From NCBI GenBank assembly GCA_963786955.1, contig CAWBAT010000006.1, forward strand, positions 96,001 to 160,000: a DNA stretch of 64,000 nucleotides, written 5' to 3'. Origin of the DNA: an uncultured Acidimicrobiia bacterium (GTDB lineage Bacteria > Acidobacteriota > Terriglobia > Versatilivoradales > Versatilivoraceae). Both the position numbers and the translations under genes were made by a program. This document shows positions 46,542 to 64,000 of this stretch, piece by piece. The notes below the pieces were generated by a model, which had not been told where the DNA came from, searched no databases, and saw only the letters and a list, made by a program, of their open reading frames with translations. The first letter of the stretch is position 1, and every line of letters starts with the position of its first letter.

Positions 46542-46664
46542 ACTTCCGATCTGCCCCTGGCGATCGAGGTTCGGCCGGGTATAACACCCTGGCGATTTCA
46601 TTCCAGGTATTGCAGAACATCGATATTTCAAACTGAAACTTAGGTGCCTCTCATTGAGTTCGCG

Positions 46665-46832
46665 GTAATGCGTTAGTTACGGGGGGAAATCTGTACGGGC
46701 AAGGCATTCGGTGACGATTTGAAATTGTCGCTTCTGTAGCGGCTGAGTGGGTAGGGACGGACCGCCGGGCCGTCCGCGGCGCGCTCGGCGAGCGCGCCCT
46801 ACCAGAAATTCCCCCGATAACTAACGCATAAC
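46665..46832. mobile_element. MITE family B, second copy (168 bp)
   Basis: A few substitutions vs 22288..22455; flanks AGTTCGCG / AGTTTACG (6 of 8 match, decayed TSD). Confidence 0.9.
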
Positions 46833-46851
46833 AGTTTACGCTGAGTTATCC

Positions 46852-46881
46852 TTGACAATCCCAGAGCCGATTCCCTATAGT
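46852..46881 (+). promoter_or_regulatory. Putative sigma70 promoter
   Basis: TTGACA-N18-TATAGT. Confidence 0.6.
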
Positions 46882-46887
46882 ATCTTC

Positions 46888-46970
46888 AGTCCGACGATTG
46901 AGCTGTATGTTCCTGATCGTCCTCTCTCCAAAAGTGCTCATCTCCTTGAAACGGATGAGCACTTTTTTTT
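46888..46970 (+). ncRNA. Candidate small RNA (about 80 nt)
   Basis: Between promoter and intrinsic terminator, no ORF; GACGAT..ATCGTC stem followed by CTCTCTCC. Confidence 0.45.
46930..46970 (+). terminator. Rho-independent terminator
   Basis: AAAAGTGCTCATC..GATGAGCACTTTTTTTT. Confidence 0.85.
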
Positions 46971-47009
46971 GAATAATTGAAATTCGCGCTTTTTTGGCGT
47001 GCGATCCAA

Positions 47010-47085
47010 GCCGACGTAGCTCAGTTGGTAGAGCAGCCGATTCGTAATCGGCAGGTCATCGGTTCAAGTCCGATCGTCGGCTCCA
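47010..47085 (+). tRNA. tRNA-Thr (CGT)
   Basis: 76-nt cloverleaf GCCGACG..CGTCGGC-TCCA, anticodon loop TTCGTAA, GGTTCAAGTCC T arm, encoded CCA. Confidence 0.98.
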
Positions 47086-47397
47086 TTTTATCAACCCCTT
47101 ACAGAATATAATTTTCCATGCGAATATCTTGGTTGCGGGCGGACTGGGGATTTTAGCTAATTTTTTTGGGGCTATGTATTATCCGTTTAACCGAAAAACC
47201 TCATATTTGTTTGTCTATAACGATTTAGAAAAGTCATGAAGCCAGTCCACCTCTTACCGTACTAGTTCATGAGAACAGTCAGACCCACTATTTGCCCTGT
47301 GTTGGAGTCCATGCGATTAGCTGTGGAACTTAAGGGCGAATTCCCCCGTCGGCAGAGAGTTACAACACCGCTTTGGCGTCACTCGCCGTCATGTGGC

Positions 47398-47469
47398 CGT
47401 ATTACGGCGTACTCGGGAACTGACACGTGTTCGAAAGACAAGCTATTCTCAGTTTCCGGTTACGCGACT
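47398..47469 (+). repeat. 71-72-bp hairpin element, copy 1 (subtype I)
   Basis: CGTATTACGGCGTACTCGGGAACTGA..TCAGTTTCCGGTTACGCGACT. Confidence 0.8.
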
Positions 47470-47507
47470 ACGCAACCGCTGAATGGATCAGTAAAGCTAC
47501 GGCGTTA

Positions 47508-48446
47508 CTATCGAGTGCCGGTGAACCCGCGCTTCGACAGAGCGTCTCGGAGTGCGTGCAGAACTGCCTCACACTTAGGAATCACTTTTCCCTTTTCGTT
47601 CAGCGAGAGTGCCAGCGAACGCACATTCGTGTTGCGGCGCGAAAGGGAAATGATCTCTTGGTTGACAACCATGAATCGGTCCAAAGCGGCATTGGCAGCG
47701 ACGATCTGTGGCTGGAACCTGGGCTCAACGAGGGATGAGAGCGTTGTCAGTGCGTTCCGCCCGGTCGCCTCCGACGTCGCCATGCTTTTCTCCATGCGCG
47801 TCATGACTGCCTCGTCGGCATCCGCAATATGGGGCGCCTGAAGCACCTGAATCTCCCGAACCGTTGCGACGGCGGTTGCGACGAGCGCTTCGACGCGCCA
47901 CTTATCCGCAGGGACTCGGGGGGCAACTGGCTTGAGGGAATCGCGGAAAGAATCAGCTGCCTCCTGCGCGGGGCCGAAAGAAAGGCGCTGGGCCTTGAGG
48001 TTAGTATTCTCGACAGCCAGGTCGAGAATGCGACGATCCAGCTCACAATATTCCCTAAATCGATTGACGAATTCCTGGAGCAAACGGCCCTCGTCAGAGT
48101 AGTGAAGATCTTCGAGAAGGGGTTTTAACGAGTCGATGTCTATCTGGACCTTCTCCTTTGCTTGTTCGGCTTCACGAGCAAACGCTATGGACGCTTCGTC
48201 AGTGTCTGCCATCACGGCTTTGTTAGCGGTATCAGCGGCCTTGGTAAATTGAACGAGAAGATCTGCGGCAATGTGGCGTGCCTGCGACACCCGCTGCAAA
48301 GCAGAATTGACGTCGCAGCCAATCATCGCACCCAAGGAGAAGACCATCAGGGCCATCCAGCTCGCCCCGGCTCGGGCGCGAAACAACGCCAGGGAACTGA
48401 CTGCTCGACCGAAACGCACCTTCTCCAAAATGCCAAAAAATAACAT
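47508..48446 (-). CDS. Stand-alone four-helix-bundle (MCP-like ligand-binding) exported protein, possibly lipoprotein
   Basis: Hydrophobic segment ending MIGC, then all-helical region with repeated AVENTN / SRRNTN segments; no signalling domain; start uncertain. Confidence 0.6.
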   Translation of the reverse strand: MLFFGILEKVRFGRAVSSLALFRARAGASWMALMVFSLGAMIGCDVNSALQRVSQARHIAADLLVQFTKAADTANKAVMADTDEASIAFAREAEQAKEKVQIDIDSLKPLLEDLHYSDEGRLLQEFVNRFREYCELDRRILDLAVENTNLKAQRLSFGPAQEAADSFRDSLKPVAPRVPADKWRVEALVATAVATVREIQVLQAPHIADADEAVMTRMEKSMATSEATGRNALTTLSSLVEPRFQPQIVAANAALDRFMVVNQEIISLSRRNTNVRSLALSLNEKGKVIPKCEAVLHALRDALSKRGFTGTR

Positions 48447-49022
48447 GAGCAGAGTCTCACCGCCGCGGACAGGGATGAACAAGAGAAATTTGTTCACGTG
48501 AAGGCTTCTGATGGAACCACGAGGACCCATTCTCGCAGCTTTCGTTAGCGCCAGGCCGTCCAAATGATCTACTAATTCTCTTTTCGAATCGAGTACATGG
48601 CATCGCGGATCTGAAGCGACGCCGCCCAAGTCGGTACTCGTCGAAGCCCGAACTAAAAGTCGTACTTTGCTTGCCCCGCAACCAGCCTTCGCCCTTTCTT
48701 TCTGTCTCGGCTTTCCCGATTAGCTTTTCCGTTGGGTCAGTTTTGTCGTGCGTTCACTGCATTGCCCACTGAATCGTCCTAGTCTACCAGATTCTTGCCA
48801 CCAAGCCTGGCGAATCTCCGGGCAATCTTCGGGTTGGGAAGAGGTGCCCGATACGCCGGTAGGATATTTCAAAAAAGGTCAGTGAAACTTGGCTTGCTGA
48901 AACAAGCCGGAAAGTAACCGTGAATCCCACGTGCCTTGGCTGGGTTCAGCCCGTGCTGGCTTCGGGGCCAAACATAGGTCCTCATAAGCCACCCAGTATT
49001 TACCAAGACCAAGTCAAGTTGA

Positions 49023-49093
49023 CGTATCACGGCTACTCGGAAACTGACACCTGCTCGGAGGAGCTACAATTTCAAGTTTCCGATTACGCAACT
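49023..49093 (+). repeat. 71-72-bp hairpin element, copy 2 (subtype I)
   Basis: CGTATCACGGCTACTCGGAAACTGA..AAGTTTCCGATTACGCAACT. Confidence 0.8.
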
Positions 49094-49162
49094 ATACATT
49101 CATCTAAACGAACAATAGGCCTTTCGGGATCCAGACAAAATAAACAAATGATATCCCACTTA

Positions 49163-50293
49163 TACACAGCGTCATAAATACTTGCGCATAACAAAAAGTT
49201 CCGCTATCCTTGACGTATCTTTCGGTCAAGGGGGCGGATCGTGCAAAAGCTGAGCATCGAGAATCCTGACATCATGCGAATTGCACTCCAGCAAGAGATT
49301 GCCCGGTCTGAAGAATCTCGTTACGATCACCGGCTGCACGGGATCTTGCTGGTGTGCGCGGGGAGAAGCTGTTATGAGGTGGCCGAACTGCTGGGCCACA
49401 GTCCTCGAACTGTCCAGAACTGGGTGGCGCGTTTCGACCGCAGCGGTTTTGCTGGCCTGCAAGAGGAGGAACGTCCGGGACGACCGACGGGACTGGACGA
49501 AAAGTCTCGCCGTCGAATTGGTCAGGATCTGCGACACTCGCCGCGCGATTTGGGGTACTCTCAGAACCTCTGGGATGGCAAACTGCTCAGCCACCATCTC
49601 GAGCGAAGCTTCGGGGTGGGATTGGGTGTTCGCCAATGTCAACGGCTGTTTCGGCAGTTGGGGTTTCGGCGCCGCAAACCCCGACCGCTGATTGCTCAGG
49701 CCGAGCCGGGGGCCCAACAGGCATATAAAAAAACTCCGACGTCTGGCCGCAAGAAAGGACCTGGACATTTGGTTTGAAGACGAATGCCACTTTACACAAC
49801 ACGGATCACGCTGTGCCATGTGGGTTCCTCCAGAGGACGTCGATCCGATTGTACTGCACGCTCCCACCCGCAAGAGTGTGGCGTTCTTTGGAGCGGTTTG
49901 TGCCGGGGACGGCCGCTGGGCCAGTCAAGCGGCAGAGACGTTTAACGCGATGAGCTTTCAGGCCTTTCTCAGTTACCTGTTGCGGAGGTATCGGCCCAGA
50001 CGCCAAATGGTGGTGGTGGTCGACAATGCTCGCTGGCATCACGCCCGTCAATTGCGGCCGTGGCTCAAAGAATATCGCAAACAGTTGCGTCTGGACTTCC
50101 TGCCACCCTACAGCCCAGACTTGAACGCGGTGGAACGTGTTTGGAAGTTGACGCGGCGCTTGTGTACCCATAACCAATACTTCGCGGAATTGGATGAATT
50201 GCTTGAGCGGGTTCAAGATCAGTTCGATTTTTGGACGAAAACCCATAATCAAGTCCTGCACACTCTATGCGCAATTATTTAAGACGTTGTGTA
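49163..50293 (+). mobile_element. IS630-family insertion sequence, complete
   Basis: TIRs TACACAGCGTCATAAATACTTGCGCATA / TATGCGCAATTATTTAAGACGTTGTGTA, TA duplication on both sides. Confidence 0.95.
49241..50282 (+). CDS. IS630 transposase in two ORFs joined by a probable -1 programmed frameshift
   Basis: HTH ORF 49241..49777; DDE ORF (WFEDE, VVDNARWH, LPPYSPDLNAVERVW); A7 run at 49727-49733. Confidence 0.93.
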
Positions 50294-50363
50294 TAGAAGC
50301 AGTGCATGGTACAAACCGACGACGTCGCAACCAGGTTTTCTGCATCCTTTGAGTGGATTCGAT

Positions 50364-50485
50364 TCAAGAAGGTCCCACGCCGTTCGTTTGCATCGAGCTG
50401 GTGGCCTTCGAATCTGCAAAGGTACTCCAGGGGGCTGACATCTCAGTACCCTTCCCCGCGTGAGAATGAGCATCAATAATTAAAT
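50364..50485 (-). pseudogene. Possible amidohydrolase N-terminal remnant
   Basis: LIIDAHSHAGKG metal-binding start motif, then frame degenerates. Confidence 0.35.
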
Positions 50486-50795
50486 CGGTTTTTACATCGG
50501 TCGACTTTGCGTCCAATCTTTTGAAAATCGTGGCACCCCAACTACGGTAAACATTTGTTTCAACCACTTACGGCGTTTCTTTATTGCACCTCCTAGTGCT
50601 ATTACAAAATTGTATTACCGGGGACCAATTCGCCCCTACAGGAAGTCTCAAGTGAATTACCCAGGATGTACTCGGACCCTATATTAACTATCCTATTCAT
50701 TCTGTTGCAGGAGACCTGCACAAAAACCCCTTCAAAGATGGCAGCAAAAGTGTCTGGTTACTAGGAGTTCTGCCTTTTTACATAAAGGGGTTACT

Positions 50796-51902
50796 ATGAA
50801 GTACAACCAGCCACTTGTATTGGTCTCATTGCTCTTTTTCTGCATGTGCCGCTGGTGTCTCGCATCAACTTGCGACTTCAATGGGGACGGAACCACCAAT
50901 GTCATGGATTTGCAGATGTTGGTCAACGGTATTCTGGCCTCATCGACCTCCAGCAGCTTGGATATCAATCAGGACGGCAAAGTGGACGTTCTCGATCTCC
51001 AGCGATTGGCAAACGTGATCCTGGGGATCCAGTCCTGTCCCGGACAAGGAGGGGTTTCACCTCAAATCGAAGGCGTCGAGATATTCCCTCCTGACAACCC
51101 CTGGAACCGGGATATTTCCAATGACCCGGTTGATCCAAACTCGGCCAATTACATAACCAACATGAATGGCGGGACCAAGTATCTTCATGCTGATTTTGGT
51201 TCGAATCCGGATTACGGAATCCCCTTTGTCGTAGTTCCCGGAACCCAGCCTAAAGTCCCAGTGGTTTTTGACTATGCAGACGAGAGCGATCCGGGGCCAT
51301 ATCCTATTCCGCCCAATGCGCCCATTGAGGGTGGCGCCAGTTCTAGCGGAGACCGCCACGTCCTGGTTCTCGACAAGGACAACCACAAACTCTATGAGAC
51401 CTTTAGTTCCTATTACGTTGGCCCGGGATGGCAATGCGGGTCAGGAGCCATCTTCGATCTCACCTCAAACAGTCTGCGTCCCGACTATTGGACTTCGGCA
51501 GATGCCGCAGGCCTTCCGATCCTCCCCGGCCTTGTCCGCTACGACGAAGCTGCGGTTGCCGGCGAAATCAGGCATGCAGTCAGGTTCACTGTGGCCCGCA
51601 CCCAAAAAGCCTTCATTCATCCGGCGACTCATTATGCGAGCAGTTCTACCGAACCCAATTTGCCACCCATGGGACTCCGTGTTCGATTGAATGCCAACTA
51701 CGACCTCACCCGCTTCACTGGCGCTGCCCACGCCATCTTGGTGGCCCTCAAGAAATACGGCATGTTACTGGCTGACAACGGATCAGACTGGTACATCACG
51801 GGAGCCAGTGATCCCCGCTGGGACGACAATGATCTGAACCAGTTGAAGACTGTCCCAGCCAGCGCCTTCGAGGTGGTGCAGTCAGGGGCAATCATCAAAT
51901 AA
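50796..51902 (+). CDS. Secreted protein: dockerin-like duplicated Ca-binding repeat plus uncharacterised domain
   Basis: Signal peptide; DFNGDGTTNVMDLQMLVN and DINQDGKVDVLDLQRLAN; FPPDNPWN, GDRHVLV, SADAAGLP. Confidence 0.85.
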   Translation: MKYNQPLVLVSLLFFCMCRWCLASTCDFNGDGTTNVMDLQMLVNGILASSTSSSLDINQDGKVDVLDLQRLANVILGIQSCPGQGGVSPQIEGVEIFPPDNPWNRDISNDPVDPNSANYITNMNGGTKYLHADFGSNPDYGIPFVVVPGTQPKVPVVFDYADESDPGPYPIPPNAPIEGGASSSGDRHVLVLDKDNHKLYETFSSYYVGPGWQCGSGAIFDLTSNSLRPDYWTSADAAGLPILPGLVRYDEAAVAGEIRHAVRFTVARTQKAFIHPATHYASSSTEPNLPPMGLRVRLNANYDLTRFTGAAHAILVALKKYGMLLADNGSDWYITGASDPRWDDNDLNQLKTVPASAFEVVQSGAIIK

Positions 51903-52027
51903 TCGGTCACTAGACAGCTCACTTCGAGTCCAAAGTTCACGGTCCAATGTCCAAAGTGACCAAGCTGTTCTTCAAATGAGCCTGGTCTGCCGCCGGCGAC
52001 TAACTGCGTCATTTCTCCCTGGACCAC

Positions 52028-52713
52028 AAAAATCGGGCATTACCCGCGGATGGTTTTCCGCACTCACCGGCCAGGGAAGGTGTGAAAAAATTGGCTGTAG
52101 CGGCGCTCTATGAGCGCCGCTACTTTTCATTTCAACGGCTTGGCCGGCGCTCATAGAGCGCCGCTACAATTTCTTCACACCAGTGTGCCAAGGGAGAGTG
52201 GCAAGTCATCGCGGATGCTACTGCCCCTCGAAACCCAATGTTATCGCGCAGTTGTCCGCAGACACTACGGACTACCGGTTTCCTTTGGCCATCGCCAACA
52301 ACACGACCTACAAAGACCCCGACATGTCTGTCCGTTTCAAGACGATTTCAGGGAAGGAAGACCAGGGAGCCGGTTTGGTGTGGCGGTACTGGGATGCCAA
52401 CAACTACTATATTGTCCGGGCCAATGCACTCGAAGACAATGTGGTCCTCTACAAGGTGGAAAACGGCAAGCGTATCTCGCTGGCCCCGAAAGGGACACCG
52501 GTGAAAACCTATGGCATAAAGACAAAGGTTCCCGGAAATACCTGGAACAAGCTCAGTGTAAAAGTGATTGGGAATCTATTCACTGTTTCGTTTAATGATC
52601 AGAAGCTTTACGAGGTAGAGGACAACAGCTTTACTCAAGCAGGCCATGTCGGCCTCTCGACTAAAGCGGATTCAATTATTCACTTTGATGATTTCACATT
52701 AGACAGTAAGTGA
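52028..52713 (+). pseudogene. DUF1080/ConA-like beta-sandwich protein interrupted by a MITE (start not resolved)
   Basis: GWFSALTGQG upstream and AKGEWQVIADATA downstream of the insertion; GAGLVWRY.DANNYYIVRANALEDN, GHVGL.TKADS..FDDF. Confidence 0.7.
52076..52181. mobile_element. MITE family A carrying REP doublet
   Basis: GAAGGTGTGAA..TTCACACC; near-identical to 2321..2429; flanks AGG/AGT. Confidence 0.82.
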
Positions 52714-52831
52714 GCGGAGCTTCCGACTTGCATCTCTGATTTCCTCACCGGACCGAGGGGAAAATCGATATGCCCAAGTGATCTTTGTTCCGCTGATCAG
52801 TTTGAGTCAAGGCAACAAAGAGTTCACCATA

Positions 52832-52903
52832 CTTATAACGCCGTTATCGGAGACTGACAGCTGCTCGAATGGGCTACCATTTCATGTTTCCGGTTAGCCG
52901 ACT
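52832..52903 (+). repeat. 71-72-bp hairpin element, copy 3 (subtype I)
   Basis: CTTATAACGCCGTTATCGGAGACTGA..TGTTTCCGGTTAGCCGACT. Confidence 0.8.
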
Positions 52904-53201
52904 ACACAACCATTGGATGGCCGTCAGTCGTCCTGGTGGAGCCTACAAGGTTTTGATTTTATTTGGAGACACTCCTATTACCCGCCGTCGGGCGCATTTT
53001 CTATCCTGCTGCGGTTCAAAAGCATATAATATTTGAACTGTGCAGGGTTTTCTAGTGCCTGGTCCCGATGCTCTCTAAAGGCTGCAACCATTGAGATTCC
53101 TAACCATCGAAGCGTCTCTATAATGCCCACGAGTGCCGAGTAAACAGGGTAAATTATCATTAGTTTTTGAGCGGATGGAGTTTTTGCGAAGGAAGGTGTG
53201 T

Positions 53202-56200
53202 ATGCGCAAGCTGAATTTTGTTCCGTTATTTCTGTTTATTGCTTTTGCGTCATTCTGGGCAAGCGCGCCGAATTCGACGCCGAACCTGACGAAACAGCCT
53301 ACCCTCTATGTCGTCCCTTATGCCCACCTCGACACGCAATGGCGGTGGGATTACGTGCAGACCATCAATGAGTATCTCCCCGCTACTATGCATGACAATT
53401 TCGTGCTCTTCGAGAAATACCCGCACTATGTATTCAACTTCAGCGGCGCCAATCGCTATCGCATGATGAAGGAGTACTATCCGGAGGACTACGCCAAAGT
53501 AAAGCAATATGTTGCCGCGGGACGATGGTTCCCATCCGGCTCCTCAATGGAAGAGAGCGACGTGAACTCACCGTCGGCAGAGTCGCTGATCCGCCAACTC
53601 CTATACGGCACGCAGTTCTTCCGCCGCGAATTCGGCAAGACCAGCGCCGAGTATATGCTGCCCGACTGCTTTGGCTTTCCTGCGTCGCTCCCGAGCATCC
53701 TGGCGCACATGGGTATAAAGGGCTTCTCAACCCAGAAACTTTCATGGCATTCGAGCGCACGTGTAGGGGGGCCGGGTTCGCCGCAGGATACGCCCCAGGG
53801 AATCCCGTTCAACGTCGGCTACTGGGAAGGCCTCGACGGCAAGGGCGTCATTGCAGCCTTGAACGCCACCGATTACGGGTCCGACGTTACCGAAGACCTC
53901 AGTAAAAGCGACACTTGGCGCCATCGCGTGCAGAAGAATGGGGACTCGAGCGGACTCTTCGTTGATTACCGCTATTATGGTACCGGCGACATGGGCGGGG
54001 CTCCCCGGGAAGCCTCAGTGAAGGCAATGGAAGCGATCTTGACAAGGACGGCCGCGGTGTTTCCGAAGCAACATTCCGACAGCGAGCAAGCGCCACCAAC
54101 AGAGGCCAGTCACGCTGTGCAGGTTGGCGATGGACCACTCACGGTCTTGCAGACGACAGCTGAGCAAATGTTCATTGACATTCCCGCAGAAAAGATCTCG
54201 GCGCTGCCGAAATATAAAGGCGACCTCGAACTGACGGAGCACTCAGCGGGATCATTGACATCGCAGGCTTATATGAAGCATTTGAATCGCAAGAATGAAT
54301 TGCTGGCGGACGCCGCCGAACGCGTGTCGGTTGCCGCCGCCTGGCTCGACGGACGCGTATACCCGCAGCAGCGCCTGAACAACGCATGGACGCTCGTCAT
54401 GGGCGGACAATTTCATGATATCATTCCCGGCACGAGCATCCCGAAAGCTTACGAATATTCGTGGAACGACGAAGTGCTGGCAATGAACCAATTCGCAGGC
54501 GTGCTGACCAGCGCAGTCGAGGCGGTTGCATCGGGGATGAACACGCAGGGCAAGGGGACGCCGGTCGTTGTTTACAATCCGCTGGGTGTGGAGCGGGAGG
54601 ATGTGGTCGAAGCTACTGTTGCATTGCCTGCTGAAACGAAAACTGTCCGCGTTCTCGCACCCGACGGCAGAGCAACTCCAGCGCAGTTGGAGAAAGGGAA
54701 CAAGGTCTTGTTCCTGGCCAAGGTGCCGTCGGTTGGATTCTCAGTATACGATGTGCAGCCCGCAGACACCGGCAGTGTGCCTTCAGCGCTAACGGCGACT
54801 GCATCATCGCTGGAAAATGCGCGCTATCACATCAAGCTGGATCAAAACGGCGATGCGGCCGGAATCTTTGACAAAAAGCTAAACAAGGAACTGCTCGCCG
54901 CACCCGCCCGGCTGGCCATCAAAAACGACAAGCCGGAAGAATGGCCGGCATGGAACATAGACTGGGCCGACCAGCAGAAGCCGCCTCGCGCGTACGTCAG
55001 CGGACCTGCAAAAGTGCGCGTCGTCGAAAGAGGGCCCGTGCGCGTTGCCGTCGAGATCCTGCGCGAAACGGAAGGATCGCAATTCGCGCAAACCATCAGG
55101 CTGTCGGCAGGCGATGCCGGCAATCGCGTCGAGTTCAGCAACGTTATCGACTGGAGAACCAGCTCGGCCAACCTGAAAGCTACGTTTCCTCTGACCGCGT
55201 CGAATACGATCGCGACTTACAACTGGGATGTCGGCACAATCGAACGCGGCAACAACGACGAGAAGCAATATGAAGTTGGATCGCATCAATGGTTCGATCT
55301 TACCGATAAAAGCGGCGCGTTCGGTGTTACCGTACTCTCCGATTGCAAAACCGGTTCAGACAAGCCCGACGACAGTACACTTCGGCTGACTCTGCTGCGT
55401 ACTCCGGGAATCAGCGACTGGGGGTGGTGGCTCACCGACCAGGCAACTCAGGACTGGGGGCGGCACAAGATCTTCTACGGACTGATGGGGCACGCCGGTG
55501 ATTGGCGCCGGGAACAGAGCGACTGGCAGGCATTACGCCTCAATCAGCGGTTGATTGCGTTTAGCACAACCAGGCACGCGGGCGAGCTCGGCAAAAGCTT
55601 TTCGCTTTTGAAACTGAGCAGTTCCCGCGTACGCGTGCTGGCGGTCAAGAAGGCCGAAGAGAGCGCTGATATCATCGTGCGTCTTGTCGAACTCGACGGC
55701 AAGACGCAGCAGAACGTAAGCGTGACATTCGCGGCCCCTATCGCATCAGCGCGTGAGCTGAATGGCCAGGAACAACCGCTGGGCCAGGCATTGGTAGATA
55801 AAGGCGAGCTGCGGATAGACTTTGCGCCGTATCAGCTGCGAACATTTGCGTTGAAGCTGGAGACATCAAGCGCAAAACTCGCTCCGCCAAACTTCCGGCC
55901 GATTGTTCTCGCTTATGATCAGGCGATTGCGAGCCTCGACGGCACAAAATCACAAGGCGGTTTCGATGCAGCCGGCCGGGCGTTTCCGGCCGAGATGCTG
56001 TTGCGCGACTTGGCATTTGGCAGCATCCACTTCCAGCTCGGACCGGCAACGGAGCGGAATGCCGTCGTGGCACGCGGCCAGAGTATTGCGCTGCCTGAGG
56101 GACAATTCGCGCGTGTGTATGTGTTGGCGGCCGCCGATGGTGATCAGAAGGCCACATTCTACGCGGGCAAGAAAGCGGTCGAACTGACAATCCAGGATTG

Positions 56201-56570
56201 GGGCGGCTACATCGGACAATGGGATAATCGTGTGTTGAATGAGAAAGAGGTCACGCTATCCGCGACAGACGGTCAACCGGCGCGCAAGGTAAAAGTCATG
56301 GAATATGCGGGCCTCAAGCCGGGGTACATCAAATTTGCGCCGGTGGCCTGGTTTGCATCGCACCGGCATACGGCCGAGGGTAAGAATGAAGCCTACGCCT
56401 ATTGTTATCTGTTTGCGTATGAGATTCGCCTGCCTATAAACACAAAGACTTTGACCCTGCCGAATAACGACAAAATCCGCGTGCTGGCTGTAACGGCATC
56501 GGGAGAAGGTGCACCGGTATTCCCGGCGCAGCCGCTCTACGACACACTCGAGAAAACAGCAGAAAAGTAG
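53202..56570 (+). CDS. Secreted alpha-mannosidase, GH38
   Basis: AHLDTQWRW, LPDCFGF, YGTGDMGG, QFHDIIPGTSI, TLRLTLLRTP. Confidence 0.93.
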   Translation: MRKLNFVPLFLFIAFASFWASAPNSTPNLTKQPTLYVVPYAHLDTQWRWDYVQTINEYLPATMHDNFVLFEKYPHYVFNFSGANRYRMMKEYYPEDYAKVKQYVAAGRWFPSGSSMEESDVNSPSAESLIRQLLYGTQFFRREFGKTSAEYMLPDCFGFPASLPSILAHMGIKGFSTQKLSWHSSARVGGPGSPQDTPQGIPFNVGYWEGLDGKGVIAALNATDYGSDVTEDLSKSDTWRHRVQKNGDSSGLFVDYRYYGTGDMGGAPREASVKAMEAILTRTAAVFPKQHSDSEQAPPTEASHAVQVGDGPLTVLQTTAEQMFIDIPAEKISALPKYKGDLELTEHSAGSLTSQAYMKHLNRKNELLADAAERVSVAAAWLDGRVYPQQRLNNAWTLVMGGQFHDIIPGTSIPKAYEYSWNDEVLAMNQFAGVLTSAVEAVASGMNTQGKGTPVVVYNPLGVEREDVVEATVALPAETKTVRVLAPDGRATPAQLEKGNKVLFLAKVPSVGFSVYDVQPADTGSVPSALTATASSLENARYHIKLDQNGDAAGIFDKKLNKELLAAPARLAIKNDKPEEWPAWNIDWADQQKPPRAYVSGPAKVRVVERGPVRVAVEILRETEGSQFAQTIRLSAGDAGNRVEFSNVIDWRTSSANLKATFPLTASNTIATYNWDVGTIERGNNDEKQYEVGSHQWFDLTDKSGAFGVTVLSDCKTGSDKPDDSTLRLTLLRTPGISDWGWWLTDQATQDWGRHKIFYGLMGHAGDWRREQSDWQALRLNQRLIAFSTTRHAGELGKSFSLLKLSSSRVRVLAVKKAEESADIIVRLVELDGKTQQNVSVTFAAPIASARELNGQEQPLGQALVDKGELRIDFAPYQLRTFALKLETSSAKLAPPNFRPIVLAYDQAIASLDGTKSQGGFDAAGRAFPAEMLLRDLAFGSIHFQLGPATERNAVVARGQSIALPEGQFARVYVLAAADGDQKATFYAGKKAVELTIQDWGGYIGQWDNRVLNEKEVTLSATDGQPARKVKVMEYAGLKPGYIKFAPVAWFASHRHTAEGKNEAYAYCYLFAYEIRLPINTKTLTLPNNDKIRVLAVTASGEGAPVFPAQPLYDTLEKTAEK

Positions 56571-56671
56571 CCTGGCCAGTGAAGATGTCTTGCCCGAAAA
56601 TGACGCTTGGCTATCCGGAATTGGTAAACGGTCCAGATACGGCGTTGTGAGATGTAGCGAAGTCAAGTGGA

Positions 56672-56742
56672 CGTAATACGGCTTGACCGGAGATTGGGGA
56701 GCTGTCGAACGGCAGTGGCTCCCACTCTCCGGCCAGCCGACC
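56672..56742 (+). repeat. 71-72-bp hairpin element, copy 4 (subtype II)
   Basis: CGTAATACGGCTTGACCGGAGATTGGGGAGCTGTCGAACGGCAGTGGCTCCCACTCTCCGGCCAGCCGACC. Confidence 0.8.
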
Positions 56743-57023
56743 ATCCGAAATTTACTGGTCCTCGTTCCTCTATAAGGTCGCAGTGTCTTGGGCGAAAGCG
56801 CGAGCGCCAAACATGGCAACAACAGCGCTCCGCCCTTCGATACTCCACCTGCAGTCGAGAGCTTGCGAGTGACAACGCGACTTGGCCCACCGGATGGATC
56901 TGTAGGGCTACACTGAGTTGAGTGCCAGGTCACGACGGGTCGCCCGTAGGGTACTAGACTCCGAGCCTGGTGCTTGGGCCCAAAATACTGGCGACGCTCA
57001 GGATCGGAGCGTAAAATCGGTTC

Positions 57024-58811
57024 ATGAATTCGACCGCACACCGCTTGACCTTTGCACTTCTTGCCCTGCACGGGATCCTGCTTCTCGTCACACTGCCGGA
57101 TTACTTTGTCAGCATCGATTCGGGTTACCACGTGTCGCTGGCGCGCTGGTATGGCGAACATGGTACTGCCTGGTGGGACCATATCAACTATGGCCCCGGC
57201 GGTCGGCCGAATCTGCAGGGCCCGCTGATGCACATGGCCATCGGGTACCTGGGCCGCATGCTGGGCGGCGACGGCATGGATTATGTGCATGCCAATGCGA
57301 TGCTAGCGCTGTTTCAATGGGCGGCCGCCATGTTTACGGCTTGGTTCTTCGCCAGGCGCTGTGGGGGCGATTGGGCTGCGCTGTTCACCATCGCGCTGCT
57401 TTCCGGTGCGCTGTTCGCTTCGATCTCCTTCGCGGTTGGCATCCCTTCCGGCTGGATCTTCATCTTCTCGGCATGGGCGGCCTGGTATTTCGTCGAGGGT
57501 CGGCTGCCGCTTGCCATCCTGTTCACAACAGCTGCCATCTATACGCATCTTGGGGGTTACGCGATGGCGCCGGTGGCCGTGTTCGTCGCGGCGGTGATTA
57601 CCCGCAGGTGGAGAGCTCTCGTAATCGTGGGGGCTGCAACGGCGATTCTCACCAGCCCGTATACCGTTCATTTCCTGGGCAACCTCGAGTGGTACCGCGG
57701 AAGACGCGGTGACGAGGCTCTGATGCTAGCTCCGCTCACCTACATCCCTGCCGCCTTCGGGATCGTTCAGCTGCTGCGCGAGCCCCGCAAAAACGTTTTC
57801 CTGCTGGCATGGCTCGCGGCCCCGACGGCCTGGATCGCGCAAGACTACAAGAGATTCCTGCTGCAGGCACCCCTCGTGCTCGCAGTGATCGCCGGTGTCG
57901 AGCTCGCCAGGATGCGTGAACAGATAGCGCCTCGGTTTCGAAATGCCTTTGTGGCCAGCCTGGTTGCGCTCGCCACAATCTTTCCTCTGACGCTGCCCGC
58001 CTGGGCATTTGAGCTGATGTGGAATTTTGGCCCGCGCAGCCCGCGGATGCTCGACTGGAACGAACGGAAACAGCTCGCGGAGGTGATCGGCCGCGCAAGT
58101 TTGAACGATCGGCTCGTAAACGTGTGGAACCCGACGCAGTGCATCGCGATGGCCGTGTTTGTACCGATGATGTTTGAGGGCGGCCACTGGGTAGAGGTTC
58201 AGCCGCGCGTGTATTCCGCGCGGCTGCTTTCCGCTGGCGTGAAGGTCTACGCGCTCCCCGTCCCGCCGGACGATCCGGTCCTCCGCGATCTCGCAGGAGC
58301 GGGTTTTCTCACGATCCATGGTGGCACGTCGCTGAACTCGATCACGACACTGAACGGTCCGGCGCCACTCGAGGCCGCGGCCCGGAGCTTGGCGCGCATC
58401 GGAGCCCAGGAGGCTGACTGGCTGGCAAAATACTCGGAGAACAACCGCATGCCGAGTGTCAGGGAGTTGCTCTCGGTCGAGGCCGTGAGGCGTTACCGTT
58501 CCCGCGCCCGCGAGCAGCGGACCCGCGCCGGCCGGATTAAGACAGCCATCCTGGTGTACGCGTATGCGCTCGAAAAGGATTACCCGGACCATGCGCGCGG
58601 AGCACGCGGCTCAGCCGACGGTTTCGGCGAACTGGCGAACCTTCTGGGGGACGAAGCAACTCTCGACTTCCGGACCGAAGCCGATCACCGGCAGCTCAAG
58701 GCCAACCTTGCCCAATTTGCGCGTGAGATCCGTTGTTTCGATACACAGGTGTTGCCCACCGCTGAAATGGACCGTATCAACCAAAAGGTATTCCACGAGT
58801 ACTTCCGGTAA
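57024..58811 (+). CDS. Polytopic membrane protein, GT-C (AglB/STT3-like N-terminus) candidate
   Basis: TM1 then SIDSGYH..WWDHINYGPGGRP loop, about 10 TM helices, soluble C-terminal domain. Confidence 0.55.
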   Translation: MNSTAHRLTFALLALHGILLLVTLPDYFVSIDSGYHVSLARWYGEHGTAWWDHINYGPGGRPNLQGPLMHMAIGYLGRMLGGDGMDYVHANAMLALFQWAAAMFTAWFFARRCGGDWAALFTIALLSGALFASISFAVGIPSGWIFIFSAWAAWYFVEGRLPLAILFTTAAIYTHLGGYAMAPVAVFVAAVITRRWRALVIVGAATAILTSPYTVHFLGNLEWYRGRRGDEALMLAPLTYIPAAFGIVQLLREPRKNVFLLAWLAAPTAWIAQDYKRFLLQAPLVLAVIAGVELARMREQIAPRFRNAFVASLVALATIFPLTLPAWAFELMWNFGPRSPRMLDWNERKQLAEVIGRASLNDRLVNVWNPTQCIAMAVFVPMMFEGGHWVEVQPRVYSARLLSAGVKVYALPVPPDDPVLRDLAGAGFLTIHGGTSLNSITTLNGPAPLEAAARSLARIGAQEADWLAKYSENNRMPSVRELLSVEAVRRYRSRAREQRTRAGRIKTAILVYAYALEKDYPDHARGARGSADGFGELANLLGDEATLDFRTEADHRQLKANLAQFAREIRCFDTQVLPTAEMDRINQKVFHEYFR

Positions 58812-58841
58812 GTTGCGACGCCCACCCGCAATGGCTCTGGT

Positions 58842-58912
58842 CGTATTACGGCGTAACCGGAGTTTGAGGAGCTGTCGAACGGCATTGGCTCCCAATCTCC
58901 GGTTTATCGACT
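58842..58912 (+). repeat. 71-72-bp hairpin element, copy 5 (subtype II)
   Basis: CGTATTACGGCGTAACCGGAGTTTGAGGAGCTGTCGAACGGCATTGGCTCCCAATCTCCGGTTTATCGACT. Confidence 0.8.
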
Positions 58913-59169
58913 GTTGAGGATTTATGCCAAGGACTCAAGGCAAACCTTGTTGAATCAATCTCGTGTACCCTGATAAATTCGCGACTGTGCAACTCGGTCT
59001 CAAAACGAAATGAAATAAGGATTTCTACACAAGCATTACGTCAATTCTGCCATTTGCCTTTCAGCCTGAACTGCAATAGTTTTGTGTAGTGAGATTTTTT
59101 ATGGCTACCGTGGAAGTGAGGCAGGCGTACTCTCTCCGTCGCGATTCCCACCCAATAAGGAGCACACTT

Positions 59170-61484
59170 ATGAAGATGAACTCTTTCCTCCTCTTCGCTC
59201 TTCCTGTCTTTCTCCTGTGCGGCTTTCACACCAATTTTTCCTTTTCACTGCCTCGTCAGGAGCGAAGCCCCGATCCCTTTCAGAACGGATTTCTCTCGGC
59301 TGAGATCAAGATGTACAACGGTGCCCCAACTCTCTTCTTGGATGGAAGACCTGTGTTCTATGGTGCATGGTGGGTTTCTCCCCCCACAAACGAGGGATGG
59401 GCTGCCTCCGATGTTACGAAGATGAACGCGGTGGAGACAGGCATTCACATCTATGCTTTCGACGTCGGTTCGACGGAGTGGTGCGGTCCCGCTTGGGGCC
59501 GACTAGCCCACTACGATTTTTCTACCGTACAAGCGCGATTCAATCGAATCCTTGAAGCAGATCCCAAAGCCCTATTTCACTTGCGAATCAACCTCGAGAT
59601 GAGCGAGCCGCAGTCCCAATGGTGGCACAATCTCTACCCGGAAGAACGGGAGATCCTCTCCGATGGTACTCCACACAGACAGTCCTTCGCGTCCGCCGTG
59701 TGGCGTGAACAGGTAAAGGATTTTCTACGGGCATACGTCGCTCATCTTAAGAAAATCGGTGTCTTCAATCGCGTTGTCTCTTATCAGGTGGGAGCCGGTC
59801 ACACAGGCGAATGGGTGAAAGGCAAGCTATCGATGTTCTTCCTGACCGGTGACTACAGCAAGCCGATGAAGCGTCACTTCCAGGCATGGCTGCGAGAGCA
59901 CTACAACAATGATGAAGGAGCGCTGAGGAAAGCATGGAACAAACCTGAGTACAGTTTTGAGATTGCGGAAGTTCCCTCAGGCCTCGAGCAATTCGAAACA
60001 AAGCAGATGACGTTCCGCGACCCGAATCAGGAACAGAACGTCATCGACTACTACCTTTGTCTCGCAGATCTCTGCGGAAGCCTCGTCGTCGACTTCTGTC
60101 GCACGGTGAAGGAAGCGACCGGAGGTAAAGCTCTAGCGGGTGCTTTCTTTGGCTATCTGATGGAGCTTGCATGGAATGCAGGTTTCTTTGCCGAGGGACC
60201 GGCAAGTCCGTACTCGACGTATCAACGGAGCGGACACTTGGGGCTGGGACACGTTCTTGAATCGTCCTCTGTCGATTTCCTGGTGAGCCCATACAGTTAT
60301 GGCTTCCGCGGCATCGGGGGCGAAGGATGCAGCATGCTCCCCACAGAGTCGCTCCGCCTCCACAACAAGATCTACCTCATGGAGGATGACACACGCACTC
60401 ACATGGATAATGATCCTGCTTATGGACGCGCGCGCAATCTGGCGGAATCACGTACGATTCTCCGCCGCAACTTCGGCTACGTGGCCACTCACGGACAAGG
60501 GCTCTGGTGGTTGGTGAACAAGGGCGCAGTGGAGAGCAGTCTCGAGCCCGCATTCACCCCGATGCTCAAGGAGTTTCAGCAGCTGGGTAACTTCGCGCTC
60601 AAAACAGACCGGTCGCCAAGCGCTGAGATCGCCGTGCTTCTAGATGATGAAAGTTTCTTCTACGAGACGGTCCGGAATGAGCTGGACGTGCCGCTGATCT
60701 TCCACCAGAGGCTGATAGGGCTTCCCCGTTTGGGCGCTCCCTATGACGTCTATCTCCTCAATGATTTCATCAAGGGCCGGCTCCGGCCCTACAAGCTCTA
60801 CATTTTCCTGAATGCGTTTAGATTGGATGGGACCCGGAGAGAGTCTCTGAAAAACAGCGCAAGGATGGCCGGACAGCAGTGTGGATCTATGCCCCCGGGT
60901 ACATCAAGGACACAGCGTCAGTCGAACACATGAAGGATCTTACCGGTTTCACTTTTGTGGAGAACAGCCATCCGTGGCCGAGCTTCCTCCACATCACGAA
61001 TTTCAATCATCCCATCACGGCTCGTCTTCCTCAAGATCTCTTCTGGAACACCGACAGCTACCTCGGTCCGCTCTTCCATCTGGCAGACAGCGACGCTCAA
61101 GTGCTCGGCGACGTCGTTATCGCGCAGGGGACTTGCCAACCCGGATTTGCAGTCAAGGCGTTCCCAACCTGGACATCGATCTATGTGGCAGTACCGAACA
61201 TCCCTGCGCAAGTCTTGAGGGGAATCGCCCGTTTTGCCAAAGTCCACATCTATAACGACGAAGGCGATGTGCTGGATGCAAGTCGGAACCTGCTGAGCGT
61301 CCATACCGTCTCAGGCGGAGAACGAACCTTCAACTTGCCTTCGAAGGCCGAAGTTGTGTATGACCTTTTCGAAAGGAAGGTCATCGGCAGAGATACGGAT
61401 CGCTTCAGGGTAACGCTCTCGCCGGGTTCAACGGCGCTTTACTTCGCCGGCAAGGAGTCGCTCATTGTGCAATTTCGAAAATGA
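59170..61484 (+). CDS. Secreted beta-galactosidase-like glycoside hydrolase (clan GH-A/GH42-like; frameshift near 60850)
   Basis: SFASAVW, GAGHTGEW, FQAWLREHY..LRKAW, DFLVSPYSY, MEDDTRTH, trimerisation-like C-terminal domain in ORF 60879..61484. Confidence 0.75.
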
Positions 61485-61678
61485 AGCCCGGGTCGCCCCC
61501 GCGCCGAACAAGAAGGAAACTCGTAGGCGGACAACAGGTCAGCGCTTGCCAGCCCGATGCGGCACGCAGCGCCGGTGACAGGGGCTACACGAGCTGTGAG
61601 GTTCACCTTCATCCTGCTACCAGACTGGCATCCTCGAACCAGCAAGTTCAACCCGCGTTTTGTTCTTTGCGCATGAGT

Positions 61679-62749
61679 TCAAAGCTGGTCCGCCCATGGC
61701 GTTGGTGTCAGCAACCTTTTCGCCACTTGTTCGATCTCTAACCGGGGGCCACGAAAGGCCCACACCTGCGCTGCGTCCTCGCACCTCGTCTGTCCCGTGC
61801 CGTAGCCGATGGCTGGGATGTGGTATTCCAGTTCGCTGAACGCGCCGAGCTGGCTGTTCACGTTGCAGGCCTGAACCGCAAAGCCGAAATAGTCGGTTTC
61901 CCTCCAGGGCACATCCACGTACTCACCAGATGGGTTCACGAGAAGATTGCGGATGATCAGCGCCCAGCGGTCGCCCGTCTGGTAGAGGTAGCCGATGCGA
62001 TTGCAGATGGACACCGCGCGAACGCTAATCTTGTGCTCGCCTTTTTGTCTCATGCGATAGCGGATCAAGCGGTCGGTCGTAATCAGATCCTCAGGCGGGA
62101 TCGTTCCCAACGTGCTAAAGATGTGGCGCGGTTCGGTGCGGCCGAACGTGGGCATCAAGAGATCACCTCCATGTGGCATCTGGATGAGATTCCAGAGGCC
62201 AACCTGGTCATGCGTGCGGCGGCTCGCACCGAGGAGTGCGAGCGACGTGTACTGAGTGTAACCGGCATAATCGACGCCTTGAAGCTTTAGCCCCCGTTCG
62301 TGCCGCAACGGGTTCGACGCCGGGCCAAAGCTTTTCGTGATCTTCAGGTTTAAGTTCTTCTTTGACCGTGAGAAGTTCACCGTGAGGCGGTTTACCAGTT
62401 TGATTCCGTCCCGGGTTTCAACCACTTGGTAGCTACCAGGATCAAGTGAACGCTGCTGGAAGTACTTGTCGAGGTTGGGAAAGTTTGGGAAAAACAAGTC
62501 GACCTCGGGTCCAAGCCAGGTGCGGTCGCCGCCGGAATTGTGCCACTGGTCGCTCGCATAAAACTCCCTGGCGGCCTGCACCGTCTCCAAGGCCGTGTTT
62601 GTCCAGTAAAAATTCTCGTGGCTGTTGGCAGAAAACAGGCCGAGCACGCGGCCACCGTAAGACAGCACGAGTACCCTCGTGCCGTCAGGGGTGTGGTAAA
62701 GCTCCGTCGGTTTGCCAACCTTGCGGAGGACGTCGACAAGTTTTTTCAT
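61679..62749 (-). CDS. Hypothetical beta-rich protein (possible mutarotase-like fold)
   Basis: VLSYGGRVLGL, WHNSGGDRTWLGPE, FSELEYH; directly downstream of rhaT-like gene. Confidence 0.7.
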   Translation of the reverse strand: MKKLVDVLRKVGKPTELYHTPDGTRVLVLSYGGRVLGLFSANSHENFYWTNTALETVQAAREFYASDQWHNSGGDRTWLGPEVDLFFPNFPNLDKYFQQRSLDPGSYQVVETRDGIKLVNRLTVNFSRSKKNLNLKITKSFGPASNPLRHERGLKLQGVDYAGYTQYTSLALLGASRRTHDQVGLWNLIQMPHGGDLLMPTFGRTEPRHIFSTLGTIPPEDLITTDRLIRYRMRQKGEHKISVRAVSICNRIGYLYQTGDRWALIIRNLLVNPSGEYVDVPWRETDYFGFAVQACNVNSQLGAFSELEYHIPAIGYGTGQTRCEDAAQVWAFRGPRLEIEQVAKRLLTPTPWADQL

Positions 62750-62763
62750 GGCACGGAACTCGG

Positions 62764-63804
62764 TCAGGACTTGGCCAGATTGCTGGAATAGGCCATGATA
62801 ATTGCGGCAATGATCAGAATGATGATGGCCGTGTACATCTGCCGGCGCGGCTTGCCCTGCACGCCGCGCCACTCGCCGCTGATGAATCCGAGGCCCTGTC
62901 CGCCGAGCATTTGCGACGCCTGCTGGATGCCGAAGCCGACCGAGGCCCCCAGCGCTCCGAACAGCAACATGCCTTTACCCATCAGCACAATGCCAAGGGC
63001 CATGTTCGCGCCGATGATCGCGGCCAGTCCGAGTTCTTTTCCACTCCGCGCGAGCACACCCAACGACTTGTTCCTGGCCATCAGGTAAAGCGGATAGATC
63101 AGATTGATCAGTGCGCCACCAAGCAGACCCACGGACCAGACGGCGAACGTGGCCGGGACATCACCTGCACCGTTGGCTTTCATGGCGGCAACGATCGGTC
63201 CCTGTCCATAAACAAAAGCCAGCGCCATTCCGCAGGAAAGAACCCCCGCCACAATCGTCATCACGAGTCCGCCGGAAAAACTACCTGAGGTCTGCTGCAG
63301 ATTCTGCAACAGCGCGTCTCGACCAAAGCCGGCCAGCGACGCAAATACAACGCCAACAAGCATCACCGCCACCCCGGCCAGCGCCGTCAGTCCGGCGGGT
63401 GAGCCGAGGTCCGGCGCGTCCTGGAACAGGCCCGAACCCTTCACGATCATCGGCACCGTCACACCCACCGAAACGCCCAAGCCGGTAAGGATGGCCCCCG
63501 TGAGCGCCACGCCGATCCGCACAAAGCAAAGGCCGCACAACACGTTGGCTACACCCCACCCGGCGGCCCACAGGTTAGCTGTGATCAAGCTCCGGACCGG
63601 TACCCGGCCGTAAGCAGAGAAAGCCCCGGGACACCCCAGCAATGTCACGGTCCAGGGGACGATCACCAAACCGACTAACATGCCAATGAACCACCAGTGC
63701 TCAAACTGGAACTTCTTGATCAGTTTCATCGGCCAGGCACCGCTGCCGATCAACAGGCCCGCAAAAGCAACGAGCACGATTCCTAGAAGCTGAGCGGATG
63801 ACAT
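62764..63804 (-). CDS. rhaT: L-rhamnose/proton symporter RhaT family
   Basis: PMKLIKKFQFEHWW, WGVANVLCG, GFISGEWRG; about 10 TM helices. Confidence 0.85.
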   Translation of the reverse strand: MSSAQLLGIVLVAFAGLLIGSGAWPMKLIKKFQFEHWWFIGMLVGLVIVPWTVTLLGCPGAFSAYGRVPVRSLITANLWAAGWGVANVLCGLCFVRIGVALTGAILTGLGVSVGVTVPMIVKGSGLFQDAPDLGSPAGLTALAGVAVMLVGVVFASLAGFGRDALLQNLQQTSGSFSGGLVMTIVAGVLSCGMALAFVYGQGPIVAAMKANGAGDVPATFAVWSVGLLGGALINLIYPLYLMARNKSLGVLARSGKELGLAAIIGANMALGIVLMGKGMLLFGALGASVGFGIQQASQMLGGQGLGFISGEWRGVQGKPRRQMYTAIIILIIAAIIMAYSSNLAKS

Positions 63805-63831
63805 GGTGTTACTTTCGCTCGTACAGACCTT

Positions 63832-64000
63832 TCAAACTCTGGACACGCAGCCTTGGCCGAAATGCGCGCTAGATTCGTTGCGGAAGTCGGAGATGAACTA
63901 GATCCGGGACGTCGTGCCGCCGTCCGCAATTATCATCTGGCCGATGAAGTTGCCAACATCCTCCGAGCAGAGAAGGACCGCGAGCTTGACGATCTCGACC
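63832..64000 (-). CDS. C-terminal end of SDR-family oxidoreductase (partial; in-frame TAG at 63898-63900)
   Basis: VEIVKLAVLLCSEDVGNFIGQMIIADGG; frame continues 21 codons past the TAG to TGA. Confidence 0.7.

Follow-up and report, generated by a model that had tools for sequence, protein, structure and literature searches.

The 64,000-nucleotide stretch of DNA analysed here (the window, part of contig C6 of genome G000) holds a tRNA-Thr gene followed by similar hairpins lying between unrelated genes, and the locus raises the question of what these hairpins are and what they do there. The hairpins belong to a previously undescribed repeat family of the class Planctomycetia, whose members are long DNA palindromes. 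The genome itself is placed in the Planctomycetota by gene content (PSCyt1/2, PSD1, DUF1501 and dockerin). No description of the element was found in the full-text literature on planctomycete integrons, intergenic palindromic repeats and miniature inverted-repeat transposable elements (MITEs). A role as polar joining or recombination sites for gene modules, acting as DNA, is tentatively favoured and has close to an even chance of being correct. This reading was judged the best because co-oriented copies surround unrelated blocks, hybrid copies occur, and blocks recur together with the element elsewhere.

Copies, fold and spread of the element

Five copies, in one shared orientation and of two subtypes, had been listed in the initial annotation. 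All five were recovered by repeat finding, by alignment and with R1, a covariance model made from the copies and used to scan the window at E<=1 with default filters. R1 matched each of them on the + strand with 77-90 bits (E 3e-19 to 4.5e-16), and repeat finding separated two sub-families, 47400/49024/52834 and 56668/58838. The sole further R1 match in the 64-kb window was a reverse-strand echo of copy 2 (22 bits); bases 1-47,000 were without a copy, as had been stated. Mean column identity across the five aligned window copies was 70%, and the likeness between copies of one array was 62-88%. The 3' motif of the consensus proposed earlier occurred 3 times, against 0.33 expected. Two of the earlier measurements had to be revised. 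The unit of 71-72 bp was too short, the unit being ~97 nt including the outer stem, and the array did not end at 58912, as a same-strand sixth copy was located beyond the window end. The copies of G000 are listed below with their scores for R1 and for R2, which was also used for searching.

47388..47484 (core 47398-47472), + strand: element copy 1; R1 90.3 bits, R2 84.5 bits, fold z -2.39
49013..49108, + strand: element copy 2, with a ~42-nt type A 5' extension; R1 81.4 bits, R2 70.3 bits
52822..52918, + strand: element copy 3; R1 81.1 bits, R2 62.2 bits
56662..56757, + strand: element copy 4; R1 77.4 bits, R2 67.8 bits, fold z -4.49
58832..58927, + strand: element copy 5, left end of a unit common to the congener G002; R1 78.3 bits, R2 61.0 bits
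G000:C6:162518-162614 (window-equivalent 66518-66614), + strand: element copy 6, 2.5 kb beyond the window end
G000:C3:319614-319710, - strand: element copy 7, on another contig of the same genome

The architecture of the unit was derived from 47 matches with their flanks. An outer stem of 9-14 bp, without mismatch in genus g26 (G045, G053 and G061), is followed by a 4x4 internal loop, a middle stem of ~17 bp and a variable tip. The best-conserved letters of the element in an alignment of 40 copies are those of the internal loop, namely ACG on the 5' side (A 39/40, C 36/40, G 39/40) and GAC on the 3' side (G 36/40, A 40/40, C 40/40). In the same alignment 69.7% of 1,194 cells were paired, compared to 30-38% with the partners slid. 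Double changes were found in 25 of 30 pairs, and none of 500 shuffles matched the observed values. These compensatory changes across the 40 copies confirm the covariation of the fold that had been claimed from the window copies. The middle helix is 80% paired and the arms are inverted repeats, so that the element has the terminal inverted repeats of a MITE. Fold z-scores of the + strand for window copies 1-5 were -2.4, -3.9, -1.2, -4.5 and -4.3. The tip stems with G-start tetraloops described in the initial annotation were reproduced when the five window copies were folded; across the family as a whole they are not the rule.

In some lineages conserved extensions of 30-50 nt are present on both sides of the unit. 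The ~42-nt type A extension of copy 2 is common to copies in four genera. In g26 the element stands at the centre of a second palindromic repeat, whose two arms are the extensions. This second repeat was read at L108:3380-3600, L109:4640-4760 and L110:4800-4920. It stands alone 3' of an aldo-keto-reductase gene in G053 and G061, and elsewhere the element is nested centrally in it. Other repeats of 100-200 nt, e.g. L041:8450-8582 and L041:17399-17604, occur in dozens of copies in those genomes.

R1 matches (E<=0.01) were obtained in 12 of 61 relatives and R2 matches in 11 of 31 genomes of the order, with none in the 14 genomes of genus g4, eight of which are closed (single contig). Within the class, 28 of 151 genomes, 17 of 87 genera and at least 9 of 13 families were positive. 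Genomes carry 1-23 copies, and many positives beyond the seven richest have a single weak match. The seven with five or more copies are G000 (7), G002 (20-23), G004 (9-15), G016 (6), G045 (10), G053 (12) and G061 (6). Congeners differ widely, G001 having a single copy next to the 7 of G000 and the 20-23 of G002. The copies are intergenic and mostly within variable DNA. A degenerate-consensus scan of public genome contigs gave four loci, all in one record of a metagenome-assembled genome.

A restriction of the elements to the island could not be upheld, as lone copies and half copies are dispersed in G000 and in other genomes. The half copies of G000 were found on C9, C7, C2 and C4. On one strand of C9 (291.4-304.7 kb, - strand) three partial elements lie within 13 kb. 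Two of them are halves, one 5' and one 3', the 3' half having an extension; the other is a variant with a short stem and carries the type A extension. The trio may be a decayed second array.

Orientation, block joints and the readings weighed

Orientation was compared between adjacent forward R2 matches, related genomes among them not being independent. All 30 pairs no more than 20 kb apart (18 clusters in 9 genomes) were co-oriented, whatever the direction of the genes, and the pairs more than 20 kb apart were split between same (7) and different (6) orientation. The sign of the GC skew was opposite to the element orientation at 14 of 20 loci. A rule based on replication direction was tried and rejected. 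Windows of 64-88 kb gave three firm exceptions, G002:C1 has + and - copies in DNA of one skew sign, and no skew switch is present at the orientation flip on G053:C2. Because of the skew exceptions and the local co-orientation, polarity was regarded as a property of clusters and not of the replichore.

Comparison of related genomes supported the earlier expectation that homology ends recurrently in or at elements. Window positions 58837-61553, counted from the first base of copy 5, are 94% identical over 2,721 nt to G002:C11:244073-246793, where the unit has an element on each side and another left neighbour. An NmrA-like block follows copy 6 in G000 and precedes an element in G002, its homology beginning just 12 nt before its start codon. 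Homology between G002 and G000 stops 31, 2 and 24 nt into three G002 elements, and at one collinear site G000 retains the 5' half only, with a 190-nt deletion that begins at the hairpin tip. Comparable observations were made in g26. The blocks of one G045 array are dispersed in G053 and G061. An element with an MFS block occurs at unrelated loci of two genomes with 98.8% identity over 1,493 nt, the element being upstream in both, and an aldo-keto-reductase block (94%) has the element in G045 only. Four g26 copies are hybrids in which the 5' arm and tip belong to one subtype and the 3' arm to a different one. Most of the element moves together with the block downstream of it and not with the one upstream. 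Neither a target duplication nor a clean empty site was found at the orthologous sites compared, where the differences were deletions or replacements.

Contigs of three sediment DNA runs and one metatranscriptome, all public, were compared with 20 kb of the island. Island sequence was found in the sediment metagenomes, and copy 4 was spanned unbroken by contigs of two runs. The only informative joints in these contigs were those of an IS630-family insertion and of a 448-nt indel, positions 51975-52422 being skipped by contigs of two runs, one DNA and one RNA.

An explanation for these observations could be that the element works as DNA, either in the form of folded single strands or as a duplex site with two boxes, and that a module recombines into or beside an existing element. 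Such an insertion would leave same-facing copies on both sides, and islands would grow as head-to-tail strings of unrelated modules. The polarity would be supplied by the asymmetric loop, and a putative enzyme would act in trans. Junctions may then be blurred by secondary gene conversion and by hairpin-stimulated deletion between copies. A more specific version is a gene-capture system distinct from integrons, in which a trans-acting enzyme reads the asymmetric ACG/GAC hairpin loop and inserts multi-gene modules head-to-tail, building planctomycete accessory islands; in this full form the proposal is speculative and rather unlikely. The idea of recombination sites in the initial annotation survives in so far as the sites are placed at the DNA level, are polar and lie between unrelated modules. 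Its breakpoints at one fixed base were not seen, as the ends are spread along the element, and its lead to an HUH enzyme, based on a TATTAC motif, is weak, the fourth letter being variable and Y1 genes neither flanking nor co-occurring with the element.

Several observations weigh against joining sites. The right end of the copy-5 unit (61553) is without an element in G000, and in two G002 indels (3.9 and 4.3 kb) the element is set back from the edge of the extra DNA by 346 and 1,062 nt. Junction positions vary between the 5' edge, 2-31 nt inside, the tip and the 3' arm. Tip and extension subtypes are shared between genera, for which whole-element copying is an equally good explanation, and the position of the g26 element at the centre of the second palindromic repeat is as in hairpin-seeking mobile DNA. 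No joint ending in an element was found among the DNA-run contigs, a comparison of low power since contigs drop rare variants. No recombinase, transposase or other gene recurs beside the arrays (Pfam and NCBIfam, ~400 proteins from ~20 neighbourhoods). No cognate enzyme had been seen in the window before, and none was visible in any neighbourhood examined here.

Many of these points would be expected if the elements were selfish, non-autonomous palindromes of the MITE type or of the type of REPINs, i.e. doublets of repetitive extragenic palindromic (REP) sequences. Such palindromes would prefer hairpins or DNA beside existing copies and accumulate in tolerant island DNA, and the synteny breaks would be a by-product of deletion and gene conversion stimulated by repeats or palindromes. 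This explanation is a serious one, even if on balance somewhat unlikely. It fits multi-copy elements with subtypes shared across genera and a patchy presence in 17 of 87 genera, the dispersed half copies of G000, the nesting in g26, and breakpoints that lie along the element, with one deletion starting from the hairpin tip. Divergent gaps, where promoters lie, are avoided (5, against 14 convergent), and other mobile DNA is found near or in the element (IS630 inserted ~50 nt beyond copy 2, and two copies interrupted by a group II intron). The complete local co-orientation (30/30) is, however, unexpected for cut-and-paste MITEs, and a fork-direction bias, the known route to polarity, is unsupported by the skew data. 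The comparison of sites yielded neither a target duplication nor a clean empty site nor a parent element, and no transposase was found between a 5' half and a 3' half at the loci read, where an autonomous parent was sought. Y1 transposase genes (PF01797) occur irrespective of the element, in 51 of 61 genomes including element-free ones. They are absent from G045 with its 10 elements (0 matches) and present in 12 of the 14 element-free g4 genomes. The low copy numbers (1-23) and the limited likeness of array copies (62-88%) also weigh against selfish palindromes. Improbable is a third explanation, by which the two 20-bp boxes or a cruciform form a host site for chromosome architecture or protein binding, e.g. 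an insulator, a barrier to replication or transcription, or a nucleoid site, kept by host selection and carried passively by mosaic DNA. A core conserved at low copy number in at least 9 of 13 families of the class, almost invariant loop letters and the lack of strand bias agree with it. The element was not found in 123 of 151 class genomes, including all 14 of g4, and is consequently dispensable; its clustering in accessory DNA and the widely differing numbers in congeners (1, 7 and 20-23) likewise speak against a host site.

A strand-specific structured RNA, whether a cis-regulatory leader, a terminator or stabiliser, or a small RNA gene, is quite improbable. A fold is indeed backed by compensatory changes, most copies in the window point in the direction of the genes beside them, and in copies 1, 3 and 5 the + strand has a slight folding advantage. 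Over the family there is no such bias. Mean folding energies were -39.7 kcal/mol for the + strand and -41.1 kcal/mol for the - strand, the + strand being the better one in 15 of 42 copies, and the wobble cells in the named helices were 79 G-T against 88 A-C. The gene setting was taken from crude calls of open reading frames (ORFs) around the 47 copies. In 45 of them an ORF was called on each side. Of these, 26 were in co-directional gaps, 13 of them facing with the genes and 13 in the opposite direction, while 14 were in convergent and 5 in divergent gaps. None of the five window copies was terminator-like in a terminator scan (no U-tail), promoter-like matches were at chance (6 against 6.3 expected), and Rfam gave no element match at the gathering score in the whole window nor at E<=5 in 46500-60000. 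Among the metatranscriptome contigs listed, none was visibly over an element, a weak test with a single run whose contigs show neither strand nor RNA ends. Since there is no strand bias in folding, wobble pairs or gene orientation, the element is considered to act as DNA and not as a strand-specific RNA, and the new structured RNA family offered as an alternative in the initial annotation is disfavoured on this ground. A sigma-54/sigma-70 promoter in the 5' part, a by-eye idea, was rejected after the same promoter scan. Least probable by far are divergent integron attC sites, standing as an array without its own integrase and served in trans by an integron integrase. The elements share with attC sites the form of co-oriented imperfect hairpins between unrelated genes, AAC and GTT stand in paired arms of the family consensus, integrase genes are present (an intI fragment of 190 bits in G000 and three intact intI genes in G004), and the antisense group II intron in two copies is reminiscent of the class C introns that target attC sites. 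The R boxes were absent from all copies (RYYYAAC 0/40, GTTRRRY 0/40), AAC being present in 19/40, GTT in 23/40 and both in 14/40. The integron integrase model TIGR02249 scored above its cut-off in only one of five element-rich genomes, and no element was found within 19-20 kb of an intI locus. Modules of up to 7-16 kb with genes on both strands, and an element whose bulk stays with the downstream block, do not fit either. The exclusions made earlier, by which the hairpins are neither integron attC sites nor GTAG REPs nor members of an Rfam family, therefore hold.

Planctomycete genomes are large and plastic, and gene acquisition there is poorly understood. A conserved DNA signature that can be searched for easily, and that marks where swapped blocks meet in at least nine families of the class, gives a handle for finding and delimiting accessory islands. 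If site-directed recombination is true, it would be a second, integron-independent way to string gene modules together. Should the elements be selfish palindromes, current MITE and REP models would still leave the strict local polarity without an explanation.

The tRNA-Thr island and mobile DNA around the elements

The genes and boundaries of the island, and one transposase gene upstream of it, are as follows.

47010..47085, + strand: tRNA-Thr (CGU), left boundary of the island (attL side); ARAGORN, Rfam tRNA 73.5 bits
47508..48629, - strand: module 1, a 373-aa ORF with no assigned family (sub-threshold 4HB_MCP_1 only; no NCBIfam match)
49161..50293, + strand: IS630-family insertion in two frames, ~50 nt after copy 2 (DDE_3; NF033545 in both ORFs)
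50796..52713, + strand: remainder of module 2, a dockerin/FG-GAP protein and a DUF1080-like protein (Pfam)
53133..56570, + strand: module 3, a GH38 alpha-mannosidase-like gene (Pfam Glyco_hydro_38N/C; GC 0.58)
57024..58811, + strand: module 4, a 595-aa ORF with no family match (Pfam, NCBIfam)
59089..64000 and on past the window end to copy 6, both strands: module 5
G000:C6:164968-165006 (window-equivalent 68968-69006), outside the window: right-end tRNA repeat
5177-5518 (G000:C6:101177-101518): 238-aa frame holding a Y1_Tnp (IS200/RAYT-like) gene, at a distance of 42 kb from the array

Bases 47040-47078 of the tRNA-Thr gene recur as a direct repeat of 39 nt (92.3% identical, E 3.6e-8). The repeat lies upstream of kdpABC, with an unknown gene of 328 aa on one side and a holin-like gene on the other. 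With the tRNA gene and this repeat as bounds, the six copies on C6 therefore all lie inside an island of ~22 kb. No integrase was found in this island of G000. At the same tRNA the congener G002 carries another island, which has a tRNA repeat and a tyrosine-recombinase fragment. Tyrosine-recombinase fragments, interrupted by TGA, were also observed in the window at 34703-35509 (G000:C6:130703-131509, - strand), 12 kb upstream of the tRNA-Thr gene.

The blocks between copies are mutually unrelated, with genes on both strands, and have a GC content of 0.56-0.59 compared to 0.51-0.52 for the contigs of the genome. Module 1 is on the strand opposite to the elements. Module 5 contains ORFs of 614 and 201 aa (+) together with DUF6786 (-), RhaT (-) and, beyond the window, MFS (-). 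Two unknown ORFs located between the GH38 gene and DUF6786 are membrane-size. The initial annotation had placed copies 3-5 shortly after stop codons, and the ORFs do end at 52713, 56570 and 58811, with the cores following ~113, 96 and 25 nt on. Its bracketing of single genes is correct for the GH38 gene (copies 3-4) and for the 595-aa ORF (copies 4-5); copy 2 is followed by the IS630 insertion and three more genes.

The IS630 insertion is outside the element family. Its two overlapping frames are likely to reflect frameshift expression. One metagenome contig joins 49160 to 50294 (1,133 nt skipped, TA..TA) and is exactly without IS630, and the insertion is therefore polymorphic in nature. The other insertion sequences nearby (IS3, IS4 and IS21), like IS630, have ends different from those of the element. 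A GTAG-type REP doublet lies between the dockerin/FG-GAP and DUF1080-like genes, with a REP-like terminator hairpin at 52097-52123. The doublet is within the skipped positions 51975-52422, and the ~110 nt surrounding it (52067-52184) are present in at least eight copies in G002. This GTAG hairpin is probably the true REP family of the genome, fitting its 18 matches to Y1 (RAYT-like; RAYT, REP-associated tyrosine transposase). The closest of these to an element copy, among nine listed, are 38 and 42 kb away.

A group II intron (RVT_1 and GIIM) is inserted antisense in two G002 elements at the same point, just after the 3' loop. The two intron copies, L036:1784-4121 (G002:C11) and L039:6925-9263 (G002:C18), are 97.9% identical over 2,340 nt. 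As the intron is at the same point in both, the element carries an intron homing site.

Integron integrase genes were located as three intact intI genes in G004, the only one of the five element-rich genomes with TIGR02249 above cut-off, and as an N-terminal fragment of 146 residues (190 bits) in a 179-aa frame at G000:C4:289913-290350 (- strand). Neither an attC-like array nor an element array was found beside the G000 fragment by R1 and repeat scans. With filters off, the best R1 match in 66 kb around the intI loci had 9.8 bits (E 3.2).

Relation to known systems

In integron attC sites the base of the hairpin carries two paired boxes, R'' (RYYYAAC) and R' (GTTRRRY), and such sites are targeted by class C group II introns. 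The resemblance of the element to attC sites and to clusters of attC sites lacking integron integrases (CALINs) is considerable. Both are imperfect hairpins of ~60-140 nt with two stems round an unpaired centre and a variable tip, both face one way and separate unrelated genes, and both form arrays without an adjacent integrase and hybrid sites. The planctomycete element differs in being without R boxes, in having its conserved letters in the internal loop, and in showing no strand bias and no link to intI. Its copies are 1.2-16 kb apart and enclose several genes, on both strands; the block with which the element remains is the downstream one.

REPs are described by Di Nocera et al. 2013 (PMC3733652) as stem-loops of 20-40 nt with an unpaired GTAG or CGTC tag, often arranged as inverted dimers, and the CGTC-type REPs are likewise reported there to be without a dedicated transposase. 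REPs, bacterial interspersed mosaic elements (BIMEs) and REPINs resemble the present family in being intergenic palindromes that favour gene ends, nest in other palindromes, and are old and patchy. The element differs from REP/RAYT systems in being one three-helix hairpin of ~97 nt and not two small inverted hairpins, in lacking the unpaired GTAG/CGTC tag, in having 1-23 copies compared to hundreds, and in its strict co-orientation, REP dimers being mostly head-to-head. Each half of the element is not itself a hairpin, and GACG/CGTC is present only within the paired outer stem of some copies. The GTAG-type REP of the genome (window 52097-52167) is a different sequence from the element, and Y1 transposases neither adjoin nor co-occur with the element.

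MITEs such as Correia and ERIC, and the Neisseria intergenic mosaic elements with dRS3, have inverted-repeat arms, are ~100-150 nt long and form one long hairpin. Like these, the element lies between genes, is located in mosaic variable regions and attracts other mobile DNA. It differs from MITEs in that neither a target duplication nor a parent transposase was found, and in its co-varying arms, uniform cluster orientation and conserved asymmetric loop. The dRS3 repeats are mentioned in PMC3733652.

A last comparison can be made with the tandem att sites of tRNA islands, where direct repeats bound inserted blocks, much as the present array lies inside a tRNA-Thr island. The element differs from such sites in being a hairpin of ~97 nt that is not derived from a tRNA and is also found far from tRNA genes, and in separating modules that are without an integrase.

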